From a virus (Duplodnaviria; Heunggongvirae; Uroviricota; Caudoviricetes): a stretch of 41,744 bases of DNA. The number at the start of each line of letters is the position of its first letter. Positions within the stretch are counted from its first letter, which is position 1. The stretch lies in the IMG/VR virus record IMGVR_UViG_2563366971_000005, one strand, 5' to 3'. The notes under the pieces were generated by a model. It was not told where the DNA came from. It made no database searches and saw only the letters and a list, made by a program, of their open reading frames with translations. Positions 545 through 15,819 of this stretch are shown here, piece after piece. Both the position numbers and the translations under genes were made by a program.

Positions 545-766
545 TTAACCAACAGCCAGATTCGCAGGCACGCCCCACCACGGCATATTCATACGCTTGC
601 CATGCCCGAACATTTCAATCCAGCGATATTCTGCCTGGGTGTGTTCACGCGCAATGAAGAACGTACAACCGGCTATCGCCCCGTAAGCCCAGTTTCCGGT
701 AAAAAGACCAGCCAGTACCTGCACCGCCACGGCACAAAGCGCATGAAGTATCGACGTGATATCCAT
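545..766 (-). CDS. Small hydrophobic protein, unknown function
   Basis: 73-aa ORF with ATG start and upstream AAGGA; hydrophobic N-terminal half; lies 9 nt downstream of the acidic ORF 776..1054. Confidence 0.4.
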   Translation of the reverse strand: MDITSILHALCAVAVQVLAGLFTGNWAYGAIAGCTFFIAREHTQAEYRWIEMFGHGKRMNMPWWGVPANLAVG

Positions 767-775
767 CTGCTATCC

Positions 776-1054
776 TTAAAACCACTCCCTGAGCGGGCGC
801 TCTGGTGTAACCACCCACTCACGGAACACGGAATCATCAAATCCATCGTCAAGAAGACGGATATTAACAAAGTACCCTTCGTTTCGCGTGTATTCTGGTT
901 CTCCGTCATCAGAAACATCTGTCTCCCTGAACGTAAAACCAATCTCATCAACCAGAACGGCATTCTGCAGCTCTTCGTCCTCTTCCCAGTTAAGTTTCCT
1001 GAGAAATGCCCTGAAATCTGCTTTATCACTGAAACGCAACGTGAAATCTCTCAC
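776..1054 (-). CDS. Small acidic protein translationally coupled to tail fibre gene (possible fibre chaperone or DNA-mimic-like protein)
   Basis: 92-aa ORF, about 24 Asp/Glu, no internal Met; GTG start overlaps the stf stop (GTGA) and is preceded by GGGGAGG. Confidence 0.45.
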   Translation of the reverse strand: MRDFTLRFSDKADFRAFLRKLNWEEDEELQNAVLVDEIGFTFRETDVSDDGEPEYTRNEGYFVNIRLLDDGFDDSVFREWVVTPERPLREWF

Positions 1055-3114
1055 TCCACAACCTCCCCAAGCTGCGCATCTGTTAGCTCTTTATGCCAGA
1101 GACGAAAATTCCTCACATGCCCAAATAAATGGCGTAATCCTGCTGTAGTTTGTCCACCAATGCGAATGGTTGCTGTACTCCGGATATATTCCCATTTGGT
1201 TTTAGTTTCGCTGCTTAACTTACCGTTACTGACTACACATGTGGACCGTTCGGACTTTACCCGCATACCAATAAGCATTTTTTTCAGCCCGGCATTTTCA
1301 TTTATTCGTCGGTTTGAACCACCAATATCACAATACGGAAAACCGTCGTACCCACCTGATGAACCAAACCCCATTACGATCCCCGCATCTGCCTGATGCC
1401 GGTATGTGTCAAAAACACGTGGCGCTGCATTTGGCGTTTTATACCAGTTCTTATGTACCTCACAAAGAACCGTAAAAGGAAGATTATAAAGATTATTCTT
1501 AATCGGAACTGTAACCATATCGCTTGCCCGCGTTACCGGTGCCGTCCCCGTAACAATAAAAGATGATGCGCCTGTACCAGCCTCAATCTGTGGAGTGGTT
1601 ACATCGAGATAATCCCTTGATGCAACCATCTGCCCTGTATCCGGAGAATACTGGACAAAACCGCCAACCGTATTTTCTGTTGTATCTGCTTTTAATGTAG
1701 CCTCAAAAAATATCCAGCCAGTTGCATCATCCTTAACAGACCTTGCTGTAACACGGCTTGTCTGACCTGTCTTGCTAATTATGCGGGTGGTAAGGTTCAG
1801 GCTTGCTGCTCCTATTGATGTCCTTACCTCCCCATCATAATGTTCAAATAAAATACGAACGGCGATATTATCAACTTCACTTTTTACCCGACAGGATATA
1901 GTTACATACTTTTCGTCCCCTGAAGTATCAACCCCTCCGGTACTCGAATACAGTCCGATAATGGTATGCGCTTTACTTGTACCAACAATCGAATCCTGTA
2001 CGACAAACCGGCCATAATTAAACCCGAAACTATCTGTGCCTGTTTCTGTAACGTCCAGTGAAGTTGACTTATTCCACTTCGAAGGGTCTGTACTGTTCGG
2101 GAAGAAGTTCGTTCTTTGCCCCTCAATAAGCAGGCCATCACACTCAAATCGTGGCTCATTAATTTCCGCCGTTTTCAGTTCGCCAGATTTGTTGATATAT
2201 GTTGCCGTTGATGCGCGACTGAAATTAACCTGTTTATCACTGGCAACCTGAACCACATTATCACCAATCTTCACTTTTTTATAACCCGGAGAATAGCCCG
2301 TAATCATATCCAGCGAATCATTAAAGGGTATCCACACATCCGGCAGCGGCTGTAAAACATATCTGTACGGCTCTGCTGTCTGGTTTGCGTATTCTCTGGC
2401 AGCATCTTCACTTGCTTTTGCTGCCGTCTGGCTTGCTGCCGATGCTTTCGCCGAGTTCGCCGCCGCTGTTTCGCTCACCTTTGCGTTGGCTTCACTGTCT
2501 TTGGCATTCGTCTCACTGGTTTTCGCTGCCGTCTGGCTGGATTTTGCGTTTTTTTCGCTGGCCTTTGTGGCTGTCTCGCTATTTTTCGCGTTGGTTTCTG
2601 ATTTTTTGGCTGCTGTCGCGGAGTTTGCCGATGCAGTCTGCGAGGCCGCTGCCGCCTGTGCGCTGTTAGCTGCATTCGTTTCTGAGGTTTTCGCCGCATT
2701 CTTCGATGAGGCTGCTGCCGTTTCGGATTTCTTTGCCGCCGCTGCACTCTGTGATGACGCTCCGGCATGACGTGCCACTTCATTCACCATCAGCTCAAAA
2801 CGGCGCAGTGCCTCCGGACGAACATCATCCTCCGTCATGGCACCGAGAAAATCATTCAGCGTACCTGGTCTGGAACCTTCATAGACGGTAATGGTCCCGG
2901 CATGTGAAGGCGGAAAACCTTCAACCAGCAGGATGACGCTGTACTGGCCATACTCAACATCCATGCTGTAACGCCCGGCTTCATCCGGATTTTCAGAGGC
3001 CACCGTGTTCACCACCACCGTGCTGCTGGTCCGTCTGGCCTTCAGCACAATGGTGCAGTTCTGTACTGGTTTTCCTGTGCCATCTTTAAGCACGCCAGAA
3101 ATTTTTACTGTCAT
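1051..3114 (-). CDS. stf: Side tail fibre protein (lambda Stf-like N-terminus, divergent C-terminal domain)
   Basis: N-terminus MTVKISGVLKDGTGKPVQNCTI... matches lambda Stf; Ala/Ser/Thr-rich KxSETNA repeats; divergent C-terminal region. Confidence 0.9.
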   Translation of the reverse strand: MTVKISGVLKDGTGKPVQNCTIVLKARRTSSTVVVNTVASENPDEAGRYSMDVEYGQYSVILLVEGFPPSHAGTITVYEGSRPGTLNDFLGAMTEDDVRPEALRRFELMVNEVARHAGASSQSAAAAKKSETAAASSKNAAKTSETNAANSAQAAAASQTASANSATAAKKSETNAKNSETATKASEKNAKSSQTAAKTSETNAKDSEANAKVSETAAANSAKASAASQTAAKASEDAAREYANQTAEPYRYVLQPLPDVWIPFNDSLDMITGYSPGYKKVKIGDNVVQVASDKQVNFSRASTATYINKSGELKTAEINEPRFECDGLLIEGQRTNFFPNSTDPSKWNKSTSLDVTETGTDSFGFNYGRFVVQDSIVGTSKAHTIIGLYSSTGGVDTSGDEKYVTISCRVKSEVDNIAVRILFEHYDGEVRTSIGAASLNLTTRIISKTGQTSRVTARSVKDDATGWIFFEATLKADTTENTVGGFVQYSPDTGQMVASRDYLDVTTPQIEAGTGASSFIVTGTAPVTRASDMVTVPIKNNLYNLPFTVLCEVHKNWYKTPNAAPRVFDTYRHQADAGIVMGFGSSGGYDGFPYCDIGGSNRRINENAGLKKMLIGMRVKSERSTCVVSNGKLSSETKTKWEYIRSTATIRIGGQTTAGLRHLFGHVRNFRLWHKELTDAQLGEVVE

Positions 3115-3126
3115 ACTTTTCCACCA

Positions 3127-3161
3127 ATAAAAAAAGCCCGCAGCAGTGACGCCACGGGCTT
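3127..3161 (-). terminator. Intrinsic terminator candidate downstream of lom
   Basis: Stem aagcccg/cgggctt with 14-nt loop, followed on the - strand by a T-run (A-run 3127..3135 on +). Confidence 0.45.
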
Positions 3162-3265
3162 CAGGACAGTGTAACTTTACGTTTCCTCAAACGCAGTTCA
3201 CCCCATAAGGCGGATGAACCTGCGTATCATAACAATATTTACAGAAGATAAATCGGCGTCTGTTG

Positions 3266-3865
3266 TCAGAAACGGTATCCGATACCAACAATAAATGCAT
3301 CCGTTCGCCAGTCGCCACTGCCGGAGCCTTCATAAGCAATATCAATGGCCACGGATTCGGTCGGGTTAAACTGCACGCCAGCTCCCCACGCCAGAGAGGT
3401 ATTGCTGTGGCGACCGTCATCACTTCCGGTCAGCACGTCGTGCGTTTTCCCCTTGTTGTCAGTTACGCGGAGATAATCCCCGGAGAAAGTCGACACACGG
3501 CTGTAAGCCACACCTGCCATCGCATAAGCACTGAACCATTCATTCACGCGCACAGACGGCCCCGCCATTACGCTGAACCAGCGGTTACGCACGGAATCTT
3601 CATGCCAGCGGGTATCGCTGTAATGCGTTTTTTGCTCATCTTTGGCATTGGCATAACTGAATGACGTCACCAGCCCCAGCGTGTCCGTAAACTCATAACG
3701 GTATTTCACGTTAATCCCGTTCAGATCATCGCTGCCAGGCATATCAGTATGGGTCTGAAGATACCCGGCGCTTAGTGTGGACTGATGCTCTGCTGCGCTC
3801 GCTGGCGTACCAGCGGCAACCAGCCAGACTACTGCGGACAGAATAACAGCACATAATTTACGCAT
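3266..3865 (-). CDS. lom: Outer membrane protein Lom (Ail/Lom family beta-barrel)
   Basis: 199-aa ORF with signal peptide; C-terminus ...AYEGSGSGDWRTDAFIVGIGYRF matches lambda Lom. Confidence 0.9.
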   Translation of the reverse strand: MRKLCAVILSAVVWLVAAGTPASAAEHQSTLSAGYLQTHTDMPGSDDLNGINVKYRYEFTDTLGLVTSFSYANAKDEQKTHYSDTRWHEDSVRNRWFSVMAGPSVRVNEWFSAYAMAGVAYSRVSTFSGDYLRVTDNKGKTHDVLTGSDDGRHSNTSLAWGAGVQFNPTESVAIDIAYEGSGSGDWRTDAFIVGIGYRF

Positions 3866-3887
3866 AATTACCTCTCGCTTTTCTGCA

Positions 3888-3913
3888 ATAAAAAAGGCAC
3901 CATTTCTGGCGCC
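3888..3913 (-). terminator. Weak hairpin plus T-run between J and lom
   Basis: Imperfect stem ggcacc/ggcgcc followed on - strand by TTTTTT; one mismatch in stem. Confidence 0.3.
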
Positions 3914-3932
3914 CGTATTGGGGTTATAAAAT

Positions 3933-6900
3933 TCAGCTAATCGTGATGCCTGCAGTGGCTTTCTTCATCACAACAACCAGCAAATCGCTGATACTTGCTG
4001 TGGGATACCAGCCATTTACCCACCATGCTGATACAGAAAACTCCAGCGTCATGTGACCGCGACCAGCAGGCATATCAATAACACCACTGTAAACCAGCGT
4101 ATTATCCAGCGCGGTACGGTTATAAATTTCAGCACCGTTTTTCTTCACTATCAGGCGGCATGACGAATAAGTATCGCTGTTCTCCCGCTCATGTCTGGCA
4201 CCGCTGAAAGCCACCGCCGGAATAACAATCTGCCGGTTAAACGGCTGATCGTCATAAACCCTGACGGTAATGGTTCCTGATGGCCAACGCTTCGGTGCAC
4301 GGGAGTCACGGGGGAAAGCCTTACCCACTGTTTTAACGAGATCGCCTTCAATCTGGTTTGCAGACAGTTTCCCTCTGATGACACAGTTCTCGTTAATGGT
4401 GACATTATTGAGCGTGCCGGTATTCGCCGTGATGGCTCCACTGATATCCGCATTGCGGGCTGTCAGCCTGCCATCCGGCGTCAGGGAAAACGTCGGAGGA
4501 TTGCCGGATGACGTGATGCTCACCGCAAACAGTCGCTTCAGGAACACGTCGTTCATGAACAGCTGATTCCCCTGCGCCACAAACAGCGGCGTGGTGTTGC
4601 CGTTCTCCGGGGTAATCATCGCAATGCGATCGGCCTGCAGCAGAATGTTACTCAGGGTCTGATCATCAACATCCTCAATCCCCGCGCCAATCCCGGCCAC
4701 ATAGGGAATACCGTTTTTTGTTTTCTGCACCTTCAGCATATACATGGCATTCAGCTCATTGCGCGTGTCTGACTGAACCCGCTGGATTTGCTGTATGGTC
4801 ACGGCCTGGTCACCCAGCTTTTTATCCGTGGTCGAGGTAATTTCACTCCCTTTTTTATCCACGTACTGGCGGACCTGTGCTATCTGTCGGGCGTTTTCTG
4901 ACTGCCCCTGGCTGACAGTCTGTGAGATTTCACTGCTCACCCGGTCCACTTTCTGGCTCACCTGCGCGATGGCCAGTGTCTGGTCCTCATTCTTTTTCGC
5001 AACCAGCTGCGTGAGGCTGTTTTCCGCCTTCCCGATTTTCCGGGTCACTTCTGCGATATCCGTGTCCATCCGCTGACGGATATCTTCTTCCAGTTGCGTG
5101 ACCTCCGTACGCAGCGCTGAAGCATCAATGCGCTCTTTCAGTGCCTGACCCAGAAGCGTCTCATCTATCAGCCCCCGGAAAATTTCCAGATACCCTTCAC
5201 CATCATTGCTGGGCTGCCCGCTGGCTTCCACAAAAGCAGATTTCCCCACCAGGTTGACGCTGCGCACGTAAAACCAGAAATCCGTCCCCGGCTTAATCCG
5301 GCTCCCCTGGACAGTCCACTGACTGCCGGTCCCCAGATAACGGGCAGATTTTTCCACCTGTGCCGTGTTCGTGATGCGTTTTTCTGAGAACCAGAATTCA
5401 AACTGTACCGTCGGGTCATACACCGCAAGACGCGGGACCGCCGTTATCTGAAAATACCCCGGCGTCAGCTCAATGGTGGCGGGTTTTGCAGGTGCGTTAA
5501 TCCGGAAGGTGGTGGTGGCAGGTTCACCCTGCTGGCCATAACTGTTTATCGCCCGCACCGTCAGGGTGTATTCCCCCAGTGGCAGGCCACTGAAACGGTG
5601 CTCCGTGTCTGCGGTGATGGCGGTGGTCACCAGTCTGGCATCCGTTCCCTTACCACTGGTCAGGCGCAGACTGAAGCGCACGCCCTTCACCACCCGCGGC
5701 GTGTCCCATTTAGCCTGCGCCAGATACTGGCCGTCAGCTGCGCTCACCTCCACCGTCAGGTGCTGTACTGCCGGTGGGATGACGCTGTTCAGGGAGCCTG
5801 ACTGCGGCTCAAAGCGGGCACCGTTATCCACGATGGCTTCTTTTTCCGGTACGTGCTGCACCGCCGTGATGGCAAAGGTGCCGTCCGTGTTTTCCCGGAT
5901 GGAGACACAGCGGAACAGGCGACGGCGCAGTGACGGCAGGGAGAGTCCCCACACACCGTATGTCTCCACACCATCCGGCAGGGTGCTGACCTGTATCCGG
6001 TCAGGCGCGGGGTGTGCGGTGATGGCCACGCTCGCCGGCTTACCGCTGCCGTTAATCAGATTAACAGTGGCCGTGCCGGTCTCCGGCAGTGTCACCTCCC
6101 GGTCCAGCGTCAGGGTACGGCTGGCGGCATCGATGGACAGGACACGTCCGCCGGTCATGGTCCCGGCATAGTCGTTATCACAGATTTCAATGATGTCACC
6201 GGGTGTGTGCCGCAGCCCCTGAGACCCGAGCGTGAAATCCACCGTCTGCGTTTCCAGCAGTTCGGTCTTTATCACCCACAGCCCGGCACGGTGGGCCTGA
6301 CCGCGGCTGGTACAGCCGAACGCGTCCATCTTCAGCAGGTTGCGTCCGTAGCGCAGTATGGCTTCCGGGTCTTCCACCAGTTCCGTGGAGGTCTGCCAGC
6401 CGTTCTGCGGGTCGGTGTAATTCACCTCCACCGCCGTGTGCCGGTCCTTCAGGGCACTGAAGCTGTAGCGGAACCCCACGCCGTTATCATCCACCACCAC
6501 ATCGCTGTTGGTGTACGGCCACACCACATCCGACGGGCGGTCCTGAACGAACGTCAGCGTCTGACCGTTCCATACCGGCATACAGCGCATCGCAGAGCAG
6601 AAATCACTGAGAACGTCCCACGCCTTACGCTGTTGTGCCAGGTACGCATTAAAGGTCATCCGCGGCTCGGTCCCCCCGAAACCATCCGGGACCGTCTGGT
6701 CGCAGTACTGCCCGATGGCATACAGCGCCCACTTGTCCACATCCGCCGCCCCCAGACGTTTTCCCATGCCGTAGCGCGGGTGAGTCAGCATGTCCCACAG
6801 GCACCAGGCCGGGTTGTTGCTGTATGCCGGTTTCAGACTGCCGTCCCAGATACCACTGTACGTGCGTTTTTCCGGGTCATAGTTTGACGGCACCTGGATG

Positions 6901-7625
6901 ATGCGACCGCGGATATGGTAGTTCACCGTCATCTGCTGGCCGCCGAACTGCTCCGCATCCACCTGCAGCCCCACAATGGCCGTGTTCGGGTAGCACTGTT
7001 TCACATCGATGATTTCGGTGTATGACGACCACAGCGTCTTATTCTGCAGCTGGTCCGTGGTGCTGTCCGCCGTCTCCCTGACCATCCGGATGTTAAAGGG
7101 CCGGGGAGGCAGATTATCCAGAATCACCGAGGCCAGGAACTGTGAGGTGGTCTTGCCGTTAATGGTGACGTCCTTTTCCGTCACCCAGCGGCCATTACGC
7201 TGTAACTGAATCAGAATCCGGACAGAGGAAGGATTACGGTCGCCCTTTGACGTGGTCTGCACCAGTGACTGCACCCCGAAGGTAACCCGCAGGCGGTCAA
7301 TGTTCGCGGACGTAATGGTGCGCGTCACCGGTTTTGCCTTCGTCACTTCCACGCCCAGTCCGGTTTCAGCTCCGGAGGACTCAAAGCCTTCCGGTGGTGT
7401 CTGCTCCTGCTCCCCGGCACGCCAGACCGCGGTCACACCGTGTATCACGGGATTACCGTCCGTGTCCGTCAGCGGGGTTTTGTTCACCAGGATACTCTGC
7501 AGTCCCTTCACCGGACCTTCTATCGGTCCCTCACCAATCGCATCAATCACACTCATCATCTGCGTGGATTTGAGATTATCCTTCGCCTCACGAGGCGTGT
7601 GTGCCTTACCGCCACCTTTTCCCAT
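3933..7625 (-). CDS. J: Tail tip / host specificity protein J
   Basis: 1230-aa ORF; N-terminus [22 protein letters not shown]... and much of the length match lambda gpJ. Confidence 0.95.
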
Positions 7626-7731
7626 ACAGCCTTCCCCTGAATAAATTAACCGCCACTTGCCATTCCGTACAGAAGTCGGATATCCTTCGCCCGAAAAGCA
7701 TGAAACACATTTCTGCCATGCTAAAGAGAAA

Positions 7732-7764
7732 CCCCGGTATCAGCAGATACCGGGGTTTTCTTTC
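7732..7764. terminator. Perfect 10-bp hairpin flanked by T-rich sequence on both strands (bidirectional terminator candidate)
   Basis: ccccggtatc / gataccgggg stem with 4-nt loop, then ttttctttc on +. Confidence 0.5.
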
Positions 7765-7821
7765 ATGCCCACCGATAATCCTGTTGGTTAAAACCGGTAA
7801 TGGCATAAAAATTCTGAATAT

Positions 7822-7858
7822 CTTCACATTTTCACAAAATCCCTGTGGCACTTATAAT
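7822..7858 (+). promoter_or_regulatory. Sigma70-like promoter candidate in I-J intergenic region
   Basis: ttcaca (7831..7836), 16-nt spacer, tataat (7853..7858). Confidence 0.4.
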
Positions 7859-7865
7859 TTCTCTG

Positions 7866-7957
7866 CGTTAATTTTTTTTGTCGTGACATAAGAATAATTA
7901 TCTATAGTTGATCTTCGTAACGCTCCCGCAGCTCCGCAACTCTGCGGGATTTTTTTA
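7866..7957 (+). ncRNA. Candidate small RNA (about 90 nt) between promoter and intrinsic terminator, antisense orientation to the late operon
   Basis: Promoter-like element upstream, no credible ORF, ends at hairpin 7924..7948 followed by 7 T. Confidence 0.35.
7924..7956 (+). terminator. Intrinsic terminator (+ strand)
   Basis: Stem tcccgcag/ctgcggga, 10-nt loop, followed by ttttttt. Confidence 0.55.
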
Positions 7958-7963
7958 TTCTTT

Positions 7964-8644
7964 TTACCCCTGCCGCCCGATAACCACGACCTTTCCGCCC
8001 CCGCCTTCATCACGGGTGCTGATGTCCTGGGATATACGGCGGGAGCCAACCAGCATTTCCCCGTAAGGCACCGGCATCGGGTTCCCCTGGGCAATCATGT
8101 TATCCAGCGAGGAAAAGTACGTGTTCTGTCTGCCGTTATCCGTTACGCGGTAATCCGGTGTTTTTGCCTTCGGGGCCAGCATCTGTGCCACACCGCCCAG
8201 TATCATGCTGGCCCCCAGTGAAAACAGCATCGTGGTGGCAGAAAAACCACCGGCTGCCAGGGCTGAACCCCATAACGCCATCGAGGCACCGGCCGTGAAG
8301 AAAGAGCCCACGATGGCTGCCGCCCCCAGCACAATCTGCAGTCCGCCCTTTCCGGCTCCGGCCAGTCGCGGCACAATGTGGATGACCGTTCCCTCACCCA
8401 GCTGTTCGTGAAGACGGGCGTACACCGCCTCCGGTGCCGTGTCATCACCGGCAATACGTATCTGGTACCAGCCTTCGTTCATCTGACGGCGAAAGCCCGG
8501 CACCTGTAACGACAGGGCACGGATGGCTTCCGCTGCCGTGTTCACATACAGGCTGAGGCGGCGGCCAAATCGTTGCAAATCCCCGTGAAGGCAGATGCGT
8601 GCCAGTGGCGGTGACGCCAGACAGAATGCGTTCGTCGTTGCCAT
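7964..8644 (-). CDS. I: Tail assembly protein I
   Basis: 226-aa ORF matching lambda gpI (…ARICLHGDLQRFGRR…); overlaps K 3' end as in lambda. Confidence 0.9.
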   Translation of the reverse strand: MATTNAFCLASPPLARICLHGDLQRFGRRLSLYVNTAAEAIRALSLQVPGFRRQMNEGWYQIRIAGDDTAPEAVYARLHEQLGEGTVIHIVPRLAGAGKGGLQIVLGAAAIVGSFFTAGASMALWGSALAAGGFSATTMLFSLGASMILGGVAQMLAPKAKTPDYRVTDNGRQNTYFSSLDNMIAQGNPMPVPYGEMLVGSRRISQDISTRDEGGGGKVVVIGRQG

Positions 8645-9285
8645 TTTTCGGAATACCTCTCCCGTTTACTCAGTTGTTCAGGCAGATGGTGAAGCAGCTC
8701 ACCGTTGCCGCAGTAAATGGCGGCATGGTTCGGTACCGAAGCACCAAAGCAGCACAGCAGAATATCGCCCGCCTGTGCAGAGGACAGGGGCACCCGGTAA
8801 AAGCCGGTGACCGCCATATTGTCCAGGTAAAGGTTCTGACCGTTGCGCCACCAGTCATCCTCGCGATGAAAATCCGGCATTTCAGTCCCCGCCAGATGGT
8901 ATGCATCCCGGAACAGGGTGTAACAGTCCGTCACCCCGTGCTCAAAGCGCCGTCCCGTCAGGTGCGGCACGCAGCGGAATTTGTGAATGTCACCCCGGCA
9001 GACCAGCCACCAGGGCAGTGCGCTCTTTATCTGCAGCCGCCGGTCCGCCTCGCTCAGCCAGGGCAGACCACCGGGATGACTGTGGACCAGCGCCACAATC
9101 TCCCCCTGCATCTCTGCCCGCAGCCAGTCTTCCGGTGCGATACGAAAATACGCCTCCGGCTCTGCGGAAATATTCACACAAGGGATATACCGCTCCCCCT
9201 CCGGCGTGCTTATCACGAAGCCGCACGACTCCGCAGGCGCACACCGCCGGGCATGCGCCAGAATCGCTGATTCAGTCTGTGTCAT
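8542..9285 (-). CDS. K: Tail assembly protein K (NlpC/P60 + JAB/MPN-like)
   Basis: Start chosen at MTQTESAILAHARRC (ATG 9285), matching lambda gpK; HSHP motif; long ORF 8542..9546 is an upstream extension. Confidence 0.88.
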   Translation of the reverse strand: MTQTESAILAHARRCAPAESCGFVISTPEGERYIPCVNISAEPEAYFRIAPEDWLRAEMQGEIVALVHSHPGGLPWLSEADRRLQIKSALPWWLVCRGDIHKFRCVPHLTGRRFEHGVTDCYTLFRDAYHLAGTEMPDFHREDDWWRNGQNLYLDNMAVTGFYRVPLSSAQAGDILLCCFGASVPNHAAIYCGNGELLHHLPEQLSKRERYSEKWQRRTHSVWRHRHWHASAFTGICNDLAAASACM

Positions 9286-9295
9286 AAACCGGGAT

Positions 9296-9994
9296 TTACT
9301 GCGAAAGTTTATTAATGGAAAGGAAACCGCCAAAATTGCCGACATTCCTGCGCAGTTCACACCCGCGCATGCACTTGCTGCATCTGTCCTTACGGATATC
9401 CGTGGTGGGTTTATCGAACTCATCCGCCACTGCCCCGCCCGTGTAACCACACTCATCAGAGCGGTAGGTCCACATACAGGTGTTCGCCAGCATGATACGA
9501 CCGGGAAACAGCGCCCCGTCCGTCTCGGTCGGTGTGGCCAGCACAAACGAGGCCGTCATGGCTGTCAGCTGCGACATCTGCTCCACCACCCAGCGGTCAC
9601 TCAGCTCCTGCTCCGGGTCCGCCTCCGGATTGCCCGCAACGAAATTCACCGCATCCAGAAAACGGGCATACACCCGGCGGCGGACCACCGTGGCCCCCAC
9701 CAGACTCTGCAGGTCTTCCGCCATCCCGGTGACCAGACCGAACAGATTGGACACCGTCAGCGACGGTCTGGCACTGCTGCCCTTCCCGCTCATCTCAAAA
9801 CCGCTGCCGTCAATCGGGTATGCCTCATACTTACGCCCCTGCCAGGTGACCGGCTCCCCTTTTTCATTCAGCTCATTACAGAAAAAATACCGCTCACCGC
9901 CCTGTACCGTCAGGTCGATTTCCCAGAGTACCACCCGCGGTGACGGCTCTGATTTAACCGACTCGTTCAGACTTTCTTCGTGAATATCCTGCAT
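9296..9994 (-). CDS. L: Minor tail protein L
   Basis: 232-aa ORF, lambda gpL-like, position between M and K. Confidence 0.9.
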   Translation of the reverse strand: MQDIHEESLNESVKSEPSPRVVLWEIDLTVQGGERYFFCNELNEKGEPVTWQGRKYEAYPIDGSGFEMSGKGSSARPSLTVSNLFGLVTGMAEDLQSLVGATVVRRRVYARFLDAVNFVAGNPEADPEQELSDRWVVEQMSQLTAMTASFVLATPTETDGALFPGRIMLANTCMWTYRSDECGYTGGAVADEFDKPTTDIRKDRCSKCMRGCELRRNVGNFGGFLSINKLSQ

Positions 9995-10323
9995 CAGTTC
10001 ACCACCTGCTTAAACTCCGCGCTGAACTCAACGCGCAACATCCCGACCCGCGCAGACCACCCGGCACAGGTCACCTTTATCTGCCGGTATGCATAGGGTG
10101 GCTTCCACAAAAATGCCTTCCAGCCCCCGTGCTCTGCCAGGAACGCTTCCAGATGCCGGGCCTCCTCCCGGGTCACGGAAAGCGTCACCCTGTATGTTTT
10201 CAGGTCAGCATTCAGCCCTGCCGCCATACGCTGTGAGTACCCGTCACCAAAACGCACTTCACGCACCGATGGCTGCGAGTTCACCTCCATATCCGGCTTC
10301 ACTTTCCAGCGAAAGGTTTTCAT
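9994..10323 (-). CDS. M: Minor tail protein M
   Basis: 109-aa ORF, lambda gpM-like. Confidence 0.9.
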   Translation of the reverse strand: MKTFRWKVKPDMEVNSQPSVREVRFGDGYSQRMAAGLNADLKTYRVTLSVTREEARHLEAFLAEHGGWKAFLWKPPYAYRQIKVTCAGWSARVGMLRVEFSAEFKQVVN

Positions 10324-14920: not shown

Positions 14921-15450
14921 CGTTTTATTGCAATCCTCAGTTGTTGTTTCAGCGCGGATGCCAGTTCTTTAGGCAGGCGTTCACGCCGGATACGGTCAAC
15001 ATTCTCATCAAATGCCTGTTTCAGTGGGGCCGCCATCGGGATTTTCACCACATCAATGGGGTAACGGTTTTTCCCGGCCACACGCTGCATGACATGCCAG
15101 CGACCATTTTTTAATCGCTGAATAAATGCCCGCTGATACCGATGCTGACCGGCTTTAAGTATGCTGTTCGGGCGACGCCCCAGCATCCTGATCCCCAGCT
15201 TAATCACAGGGAGATCACCGCGGTTAACGATAATTCTGGCATTCGGATTTCTGACCGTGGCCAGTTTCAGTCTGGACCGTTCCTTAACCAGTTTCCGGCG
15301 TACCTTTGTCTCCCGGGCAACCTGTGATGAAGACTGATTAATCGCCGTTGTGGCCACGCGGTTAATCGTCATTGCTGAAGCCGCCGGAATGGCGTTTTTA
15401 CGAACCCGGCTCAGATTGTCAATCGCCTGATCAAGCCCTTTTATCGCCAT
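14917..15450 (-). CDS. Z: Tail completion protein Z
   Basis: 177-aa ORF lambda gpZ-like (…NGRWHVMQRVAGKNRYPIDVVKIPMA…). Confidence 0.85.
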   Translation of the reverse strand: MAIKGLDQAIDNLSRVRKNAIPAASAMTINRVATTAINQSSSQVARETKVRRKLVKERSRLKLATVRNPNARIIVNRGDLPVIKLGIRMLGRRPNSILKAGQHRYQRAFIQRLKNGRWHVMQRVAGKNRYPIDVVKIPMAAPLKQAFDENVDRIRRERLPKELASALKQQLRIAIKR

Positions 15451-15465
15451 AATTTCACCCTGCGT

Positions 15466-15819
15466 TTATCGTCGCCGGTTAACTGCGGGTGGTTGACCAC
15501 GGTTGAGCCAGAGATAACAGCTGCCCCCGTCATCCGGAGAAACACGATCCACCCAGAACATCTCGCCGTTAATGGTCAGCGTGTCACCACGCCGCACGGC
15601 ACGCACCGTATCCGTCCGCACAAATAATGACGGGCTGCTTCCTTCAATACGGACCCCGCCACCGGCAAAACCCAGCGACTCCGGATCGTCAAAAACCCCC
15701 TGAACTTCGCCGCCACGTTGTGCTCCGGAGGTGAACTGCGCACAGAGCCCCATCACTTCAACGATCGTACTGTCCACCCCGGCGAGGGCAGCATCAAAGG
15801 CATTCTGAAAATCACGCAT
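15466..15819 (-). CDS. FII: Head-tail joining protein FII
   Basis: 117-aa ORF, lambda gpFII size and position. Confidence 0.85.
   Translation of the reverse strand: MRDFQNAFDAALAGVDSTIVEVMGLCAQFTSGAQRGGEVQGVFDDPESLGFAGGGVRIEGSSPSLFVRTDTVRAVRRGDTLTINGEMFWVDRVSPDDGGSCYLWLNRGQPPAVNRRR

Follow-up and report, generated by a model that had tools for sequence, protein, structure and literature searches.

The locus described here raises the question of what occupies the gap between the tail genes I and J in a 41,744-nucleotide stretch of caudoviral DNA (IMG/VR virus record IMGVR_UViG_2563366971_000005), the whole of which we call the window. In the ORF list, gene I, encoding a tail assembly function (PGAP name in ABU 83972, "tail assembly protein"), runs from 7964 to 8644 on the minus strand and gene J, encoding the 1,230-aa tail tip and host specificity protein (annotated as gpJ in a 98.9% identical segment of ABU 83972), from 3933 to 7625 on the same strand. 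Between the stop codon of I (7964 to 7966) and the start of J (7625) lie 338 bp (7626 to 7963). The initial annotation had contrasted this length with roughly 60 bp in lambda, and the coordinates bear out both figures, the lambda gap being 60 bp (15445 to 15504). The equivalent gaps of E2348/69 and Sakai are roughly 240 bp, and that of the window reaches 338 bp because it contains a segment of roughly 160 bp that we call module A (7646 to 7805). Among the matches listed, no E. coli RefSeq record carries an annotated feature under the gap, which E. coli ABU 83972 shares at 100% identity. As for the surroundings, the ABU 83972 prophage matches the window at 98.9% identity only in the tail-tip module, from the tail fibre through L (571 to 10010); outside this module, the compared ABU 83972 stretch gave just two short matches, one of 156 bp (85%) and one of 849 bp (95%), and the prophage is therefore a mosaic. 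Relative to PPompW-type phages, one mosaic junction falls within the promoter of the small RNA (sRNA) gene described below.

One answer would be that the gap encodes a small protein, for example from the 66-aa minus-strand ORF at 7606 to 7806, which exists and was annotated by one depositor as a hypothetical protein in phage ASU11. However, none of the three gap ORFs matched Pfam or PHROG (zero hits in each for 7606 to 7806), no clear Shine-Dalgarno sequence was seen upstream of this ORF, which crosses a strong hairpin and overlaps the start of J out of frame, and RefSeq PGAP places no annotation at its site in the E. coli records listed. Furthermore, alleles of the cassette region that adjoins it are distinguished by indels of lengths not divisible by three. 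The gap is thus not conserved as protein-coding sequence (such conservation would, in the initial annotation, have counted against an RNA), and we regard a protein product as extremely improbable.

The alternative put forward in the initial annotation was an RNA. On the plus strand, antisense to the late operon, it had noted a promoter-like element, TTCACA-16-TATAAT (7831 to 7858), and a hairpin followed by seven T residues (7924 to 7956), and it had predicted from them an RNA of roughly 90 nt (7866 to 7957). Our scans recovered both elements. The putative sigma-70 promoter (−35 at 7831 to 7836, −10 at 7853 to 7858) agrees with the consensus at 11 of 12 positions, and the scan and folding identified a Rho-independent terminator in which an 8-bp stem (UCCCGCAG at 7924 to 7931 and CUGCGGGA at 7942 to 7949) encloses a 10-nt loop and is followed by T7 (7950 to 7956), a predicted Hfq-binding 3′ end. 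Consensus matches of this kind are weak evidence by themselves because such sites are also expected by chance (over 1.6 kb, three promoter-like sites against 0.9 expected and three terminator-like sites against 1.6). What is real evidence is the conservation of promoter, sequence box and terminator across about 50 divergent alleles.

The initial annotation had suggested a search of Rfam and had pointed to the sRNAs known from prophage tail regions in pathogenic E. coli. Neither a permissive scan of 7300 to 8300 (E up to 10) nor a scan of the whole window at gathering scores gave anything meaningful in Rfam, and it was the literature that led to a named family, PasB. PasB came to light in EPEC E2348/69 through RIL-seq, with northern blotting as confirmation (Pearl Mizrahi et al. 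2021, PMC8550237); it is an 83-nt RNA encoded in prophage PP6 (NC_011601, 1466343 to 1466261, minus strand), its level falls by a log2 value of 6.8 (−6.8) in an hfq deletion mutant, and it takes part in 37 RIL-seq interactions. We found that it is flanked by the tail assembly gene and gpJ and runs antisense to both, with its terminator abutting the stop codon of I, which is the position and orientation of the RNA predicted in the window. Homologues therefore do make plus-strand transcripts from this site, and the family to which the predicted RNA corresponds, PasB/EcOnc22, has been detected by northern blotting, RNA-seq, RIL-seq and Hfq-CRAC in EPEC and EHEC.

To avoid circularity, we built a covariance model, R2, from ten alleles (E2348-type, Sakai-type and related) that excluded the window allele and its near relatives. 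When run on the window, R2 gave a single significant match, at 7865 to 7956 on the plus strand (66.6 bits, E = 2.2e-10), the next score being 14 bits. Alignment with E2348/69 PasB showed a conserved promoter, ATCTTC box and terminator and a divergent 5′ body, and of the 23 positions of the published PasB northern probe, 20 agree with the window. The two RNAs have in common the I-J site, the antisense orientation, the promoter block, the UURAUCUUC box, the terminator stem with U7, a body that is single-stranded up to the terminator hairpin, and a similar length (83 nt, against 78 to 92 nt for the window RNA). They differ in that overall identity is 72%, with a longest shared word of 15 nt, that the 5′ A-rich segment reads AUAAGAAUAAUUAUCUAUAG in the window and GUAACAAAAACAACUCCUUCACA in E2348/69, and that the upstream spacer is of type A (about 176 nt) in the window and of type B (about 80 nt) in E2348/69. 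The published census (Zhu, Shabalina and Storz 2026, bioRxiv 10.64898/2026.05.13.724894) used blastn with a word size of 28 and more than 75% query coverage; it would have missed the window allele because no exact word longer than 15 nt is shared, so that at 72% identity the allele falls outside the census definition, which is a limit of the search and not a biological criterion. The family's fixed site is kept in the window (the I-J gap, the opposite strand, a terminator 8 nt from the I stop). The feature thus adds a divergent member to an sRNA family that is already known and has been validated by experiment. From these comparisons, we consider it very probable that positions 7810 to 7956 (plus strand) form one PasB-family sRNA gene cassette, the product of which, in the best explanation, would act in trans and depend on Hfq. 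In this respect, the initial reading, made from the sequence alone, had recovered a real sRNA gene of a kind already demonstrated by experiment.

We then asked which parts of the RNA are constrained. If transcription starts 7 nt after the −10 hexamer, the PasB-family RNA delimited by the covariance model and the alignment is 92 nt long (7865 to 7956, plus strand), whereas the published, coverage-based 5′ end of E2348/69 PasB maps to window position 7879, giving 78 nt. A run of 5 to 9 T residues, its length depending on the allele, directly follows a conserved GCGTTA (the run occupies 7871 to 7879 in the window), and it is to the final T of this run that the published E2348/69 end maps, 14 nt downstream of where the −10 predicts the start. 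Processing, imprecise mapping of coverage, or slippage at the T run could account for the mismatch. Downstream, the allele scan identified an (ARN)3 motif, AAGAAUAAU, at 7890 to 7898 (plus strand), a candidate site for the distal face of Hfq; a run of at least three ARN units occurs at this fixed position in 42 of 46 alleles but in only 4.5% of shuffled sequences. At 7908 to 7916 (plus strand) lies the conserved single-stranded box UUGAUCUUC (UURAUCUUC in the family; majority fraction, 0.92), which has been proposed as the seed (Zhu et al. 2026, bioRxiv 10.64898/2026.05.13.724894). The CUCC found just upstream of this box in most alleles is absent from the window allele. The remaining conserved elements of the family are the −10 hexamer and the GCGUUA leader followed by the U run of variable length, and the consensus structure is a single-stranded body followed by the terminator hairpin and the U tail, whose T run ends at 7956, 8 nt before the I stop codon (7964).

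The invariance of the ATCTTC sequence within the box and of the terminator stem is in part ascertainment, because the pattern with which homologues were collected demanded both. No covariation was seen in the terminator stem across the alleles, since the stem is invariant and partly fixed by that same pattern. When we scanned 334 translation start regions in the window with RNAduplex, no target scored better than it did with shuffled PasB. Elsewhere in the window, an intrinsic terminator on the minus strand (3126 to 3165), located between a lom-like gene (3266 to 3865) and the tail-fibre gene (1051 to 3114), has a 3′ arm and T run, CTGCGGGCTTTTTTTATT, that agree with the PasB terminator at 17 of 18 bases.

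The most conserved block of the promoter (majority fraction, 0.95) proved to lie just upstream of the hexamer that the initial annotation had chosen as the −35, which is the less conserved of two TTCACA repeats. Comparison of alleles revealed a dyad, TCTGA-N6-TCACA, with an A/T-rich flank (7810 to 7831, plus strand; half-sites at 7813 to 7817 and 7824 to 7828). Its half-sites are invariant in all 57 unique cassettes, while the N6 spacer occurs in seven variants; the −10 column reads TATAAT, AATAAT or TATCAT in 45 of 50 alleles. The class II CRP promoter consensus has a TGTGA-N6-TCACA dyad centred near −41.5. The dyad of the cassette agrees with the textbook CRP consensus at 9 of 10 core positions, and its centre (7820.5), 32.5 bp before the −10, corresponds to about −44.5 rather than the canonical −41.5. 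We regard it as a candidate activator site resembling CRP half-sites. PasB levels are higher in overnight LB than in DMEM, in which Spot 42 is high; this is consistent with activation by cAMP-CRP, though it is not specific to CRP, and stationary phase or low oxygen would account for the expression data equally well.

These features also bear on whether the window copy might be an inactive relic, PasB-like in sequence but unexpressed or stripped of its function. The allele is rare (at least 99% identical sequences occur in only 28 of 20,395 records), it lacks the CUCC of most alleles, and promoter-destroyed copies exist beside sodC in other phages. Against this, the promoter match of the window copy is the best of the family (11 of 12, with a TATAAT −10), and the dyad, (ARN)3 motif, box, terminator and U7 tail of this copy are all intact, so that decay appears to us very unlikely and an active PasB-family gene remains our preferred reading.

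PasB was described in EPEC, and we wondered whether the EHEC sRNAs EcOnc22, EcOnc23 and EcOnc24 might belong with it. These were reported as Hfq-CRAC peaks in Sakai prophages Sp15, Sp14 and Sp11, respectively, as mutually homologous, and as giving a northern band of about 85 nt that is destabilised without Hfq (Tree et al. 2014, PMC4104026, Table S2). In Sakai the peaks map to I-J gaps and are antisense to the tail genes. We calibrated the old-assembly Sakai coordinates with AgvB1, which gave an offset of +137 to +146 in agreement with EcOnc42 (2.92 Mb), and with an offset of about +140 all three peaks land on the body of a PasB-type RNA. The window RNA and the Sp15 allele share 75% identity, and the latter is matched by the same covariance model, although it is another allele than that of the window. 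By position and sequence, EcOnc22/23/24 and PasB appear to be the same family. The equivalence rests on our coordinate inference because it is stated in neither paper: Table S6 gives no EHEC homologue in its PasB row, and Zhu et al. make no mention of EcOnc. The targets of EcOnc22 were listed as unknown in a 2021 review.

Does the gap encode a second sRNA? The initial annotation had also pointed out a perfect 10-bp hairpin with a T tract (7732 to 7764) and a weak upstream site, TTGCCA-18-TATCCT, and had raised the possibility of another RNA of about 70 nt ending at the hairpin. Both elements are present. The stem of this structure, hairpin 1, consists of CCCCGGTATC (7732 to 7741) and GATACCGGGG (7746 to 7755) around the loop AGCA and grows to 12 bp (7730 to 7757) through two A-T pairs; an A tract, AAAGAGAAA, precedes it and a T tract, TTTTCTTTC, follows it, the whole spanning 7723 to 7764. 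Its fold z-scores are −6.1 on the plus strand and −5.2 on the minus strand, and none of 200 shuffles was equally stable. The terminator scan did not include hairpin 1 among its hits. In our reading, the A tract pairs with the T tract. The TTGCCA-18-TATCCT site, found in the promoter scan at 7657 to 7686 (plus strand), agrees with the consensus at 9 of 12 positions.

An RNA of about 75 nt (roughly 7693 to 7768, plus strand) running from this site to hairpin 1 would draw on a very stable fold with a plus-strand T tract and a suitably spaced promoter-like sequence, and other phages do hold two to four sRNA cassettes in the I-J gap. Yet nothing that we found supports its existence. The promoter is weak, one such site being expected by chance in the stretch; hairpin 1 is deleted in one natural variant; and module A, in which it lies, bears no detectable relation to the cassette family by nhmmer, by the covariance model and by shuffle-controlled alignment, and has no Rfam match at or near any gathering score. 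In particular, module A could not be recognised as a decayed PasB cassette: nhmmer at maximum sensitivity matched only the real cassette, the best global alignment was equalled by 6 of 200 shuffles and is not significant, and 3 of 300 shuffles gave a local match as good as the best one, of 16 nt. In 1,442 E. coli records module A is at least 99% identical, and it gives no protein-family signal. The collections searched contained no diverged relative.

A clue to the role of hairpin 1 comes from other phages. The shorter, type B I-J gaps contain an unrelated hairpin at the equivalent place, ACAGGCACCC-UCCG-GGGUGCCUGU followed by UGUUUUU, on the sense strand of the tail operon only; examples are found in Sakai Sp15 (locus L006, 3237 to 3262), in E2348/69 (locus L001, about 5430 to 5455) and at many IMG/VR loci. 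In 15 loci a C:G pair of this hairpin is replaced by U:A in a compensatory change, and both single-change intermediates are present. The type B hairpin looks like an intrinsic terminator within the late operon just before J. Because its U tract lies on the sense strand only, opposite to that needed for a second sRNA, it argues against hairpin 1 as the end of such an RNA and favours hairpin 1 as a terminator or insulator in the sense direction, perhaps in the antisense direction too. Hairpin 1 itself fits the shape of a bidirectional intrinsic terminator, each strand presenting a hairpin and then a U run. We conclude that it is most likely a bidirectional intrinsic terminator and probably not the end of a second sRNA, which we consider distinctly unlikely. 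It may insulate the cassette and J from transcription that has not been modified by an antiterminator.

To place the window allele in its family, we scanned IMG/VR contigs and reference loci with a sequence pattern, obtaining 131 matches that represent about 46 RNA alleles. Homologues of both I and J flank 122 of the 131, and in nearly all loci the match ends 10 to 15 nt before the last codon of I. Cassettes are present in 1,842 of 5,426 complete E. coli genomes (34%), in up to nine places per genome. No covariance-model match lay beside the distant I homologues (33 to 44% identity) of Enterobacter, Pseudocitrobacter, Rahnella and Pantoea, and model matches in "other" taxa came from contaminating contigs only. 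The contigs in question, from Streptomyces flavalbus (NZ_JBHTEB010000006.1, L133), Parendozoicomonas haliclonae (NZ_FWPT01000051.1, L135) and a Clostridiales MAG (SFGJ01000116.1, L142), are short, come from genomes chosen to represent species of unrelated taxa, and carry an E. coli phage gene I at 91 to 99% identity together with a PasB cassette scoring 84 to 98 bits; they are almost certainly assembly contamination. PasB-type cassettes are thus far more common and more varied than would appear from the published BLAST census. Since the site is unannotated in the RefSeq records listed and lacks an Rfam model, an Rfam family would close a gap, and the allelic series, in which the frame is kept and the 5′ segment varies, offers a natural experiment for finding the seed.

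Some I-J gaps hold more than one gene. PasB-type cassettes stand in tandem, two to four to a gap and each with a dyad promoter and a terminator to itself, at L055 (322 to 1084, minus strand), L046 (4418 to 4980, minus strand), L050 (174 to 704, plus strand), L061 and L023, and include a paralogue with a different terminator stem, CUCCCGU...ACGGGAG; we did not find a description of such arrays in the PasB papers. At 12 loci, sodC, encoding Cu,Zn superoxide dismutase, lies in the gap on the PasB strand with its own terminator, as at 1050 to 1763 of IMG/VR contig IMGVR_UViG_2526164688_000038 (L010). The PasB body that follows sodC has had its promoter (dyad, −35 and −10) replaced or mutated and still scores 84 bits; it may be a relic or may be produced by read-through from sodC.

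How might the window RNA act? In lysogens, homologues give an RNA of roughly 80 to 85 nt whose accumulation is Hfq-dependent and which forms Hfq-bound chimeras with about 37 core and accessory partners. For an ExPEC or UPEC carrier we found no evidence of transcripts. By extension to the window allele, the sigma-70 promoter would fire against the late operon while that operon is silent in the lysogen, possibly with the aid of an activator that binds the invariant TCTGA-N6-TCACA dyad. The RNA would then bind Hfq through its U7 tail, terminator hairpin and (ARN)3 stretch, leaving the unstructured 5′ two-thirds, comprising the variable segment and the UUGAUCUUC box, to base-pair in trans with host or prophage mRNAs. 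The variable 5′ segment would set the target range, and the target set of the window allele probably differs from that of the type PasB because its 5′ part is strongly unlike it (72% identity overall).

The RNA is also fully complementary to the late I-J mRNA, and a cis-antisense role is therefore possible after induction. If PasB acted mainly in cis at the I-J junction of the late tail mRNA, to which it is perfectly complementary, a duplex of ~90 bp formed after induction might lead to RNase III cleavage, altered J expression, or titration of PasB by the abundant late mRNA. The fixed geometry, with the RNA antisense between I and J in 122 of 131 loci, and the convergence of cassette transcription on the late operon fit such a role, which is compatible with one in trans. 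Nevertheless, RIL-seq in uninduced EPEC turned up numerous partners in trans, the RNA is detected in lysogens, where the late operon is silent, and some phages hold two to four cassettes, or sodC, at the site, which suggests a cargo slot rather than dedicated antisense control. A mainly cis-acting PasB accordingly strikes us as unlikely, with a low though real probability, and regulation in trans with Hfq remains the favoured account.

The same observations allow a broader proposal, which we offer tentatively and regard as rather unlikely: in lambdoid phages of Escherichia, the gap between I and J may serve as a slot dedicated to sRNA cassettes that are exchanged as cargo, in which case PasB and EcOnc22-24 would constitute one family and the window allele a retargeted member. 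If so, each cassette would combine a fixed promoter bearing a CRP-like dyad, an Hfq-binding frame (ARN motif, terminator and U tail) and a targeting segment shuffled by recombination. Individual phages have one to four cassettes, drawn from at least about 46 alleles, and roughly a third of complete E. coli genomes contain one or more. Having lost the CUCC of most alleles, the window allele would on this view guide Hfq to another set of targets in lysogens of the ExPEC type, and its RNA might act on the late I-J mRNA in cis as well.

Several known phage-borne RNAs invite comparison. The lambda OOP and P22 sar RNAs are likewise short, terminated transcripts antisense to a phage operon, and their action in cis is demonstrated; they differ from PasB, for which cis action is only possible, in that they target early or immunity genes. 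HnrS (EcOnc10/11/12; PMC13502914), an hha-repressing sRNA that prophages carry in multiple copies, resembles the PasB family in being encoded in the late region of prophages, in associating with Hfq, and in having a copy number that scales with that of the lambdoid prophages. It is not the window RNA: the locus is another one and so is the RNA (66 nt; EcOnc10-12 rather than EcOnc22-24). Nor is the window RNA AgvB or AsxR, because it has no sequence similarity to them, the Rfam models RF02702 and RF02703 gave no match at E up to 10 in 7300 to 8300 or at gathering score anywhere in the window, and locus and length differ; as a control, the same Rfam scan found AgvB in Sakai at 96.5 bits. AgvB and AsxR are 51 to 60 nt long and are encoded as a convergent sRNA pair at the PR′ moron site by the lysis genes, whereas the window RNA is 78 to 92 nt long and lies in the I-J gap, and they are sponges of GcvB and FnrS, whereas no sponge target has been reported for PasB. 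In design they are alike: prophage-borne, Hfq-binding RNAs that occur as several alleles and join a conserved 3′ terminator module to a variable, ARN-bearing 5′ targeting segment.
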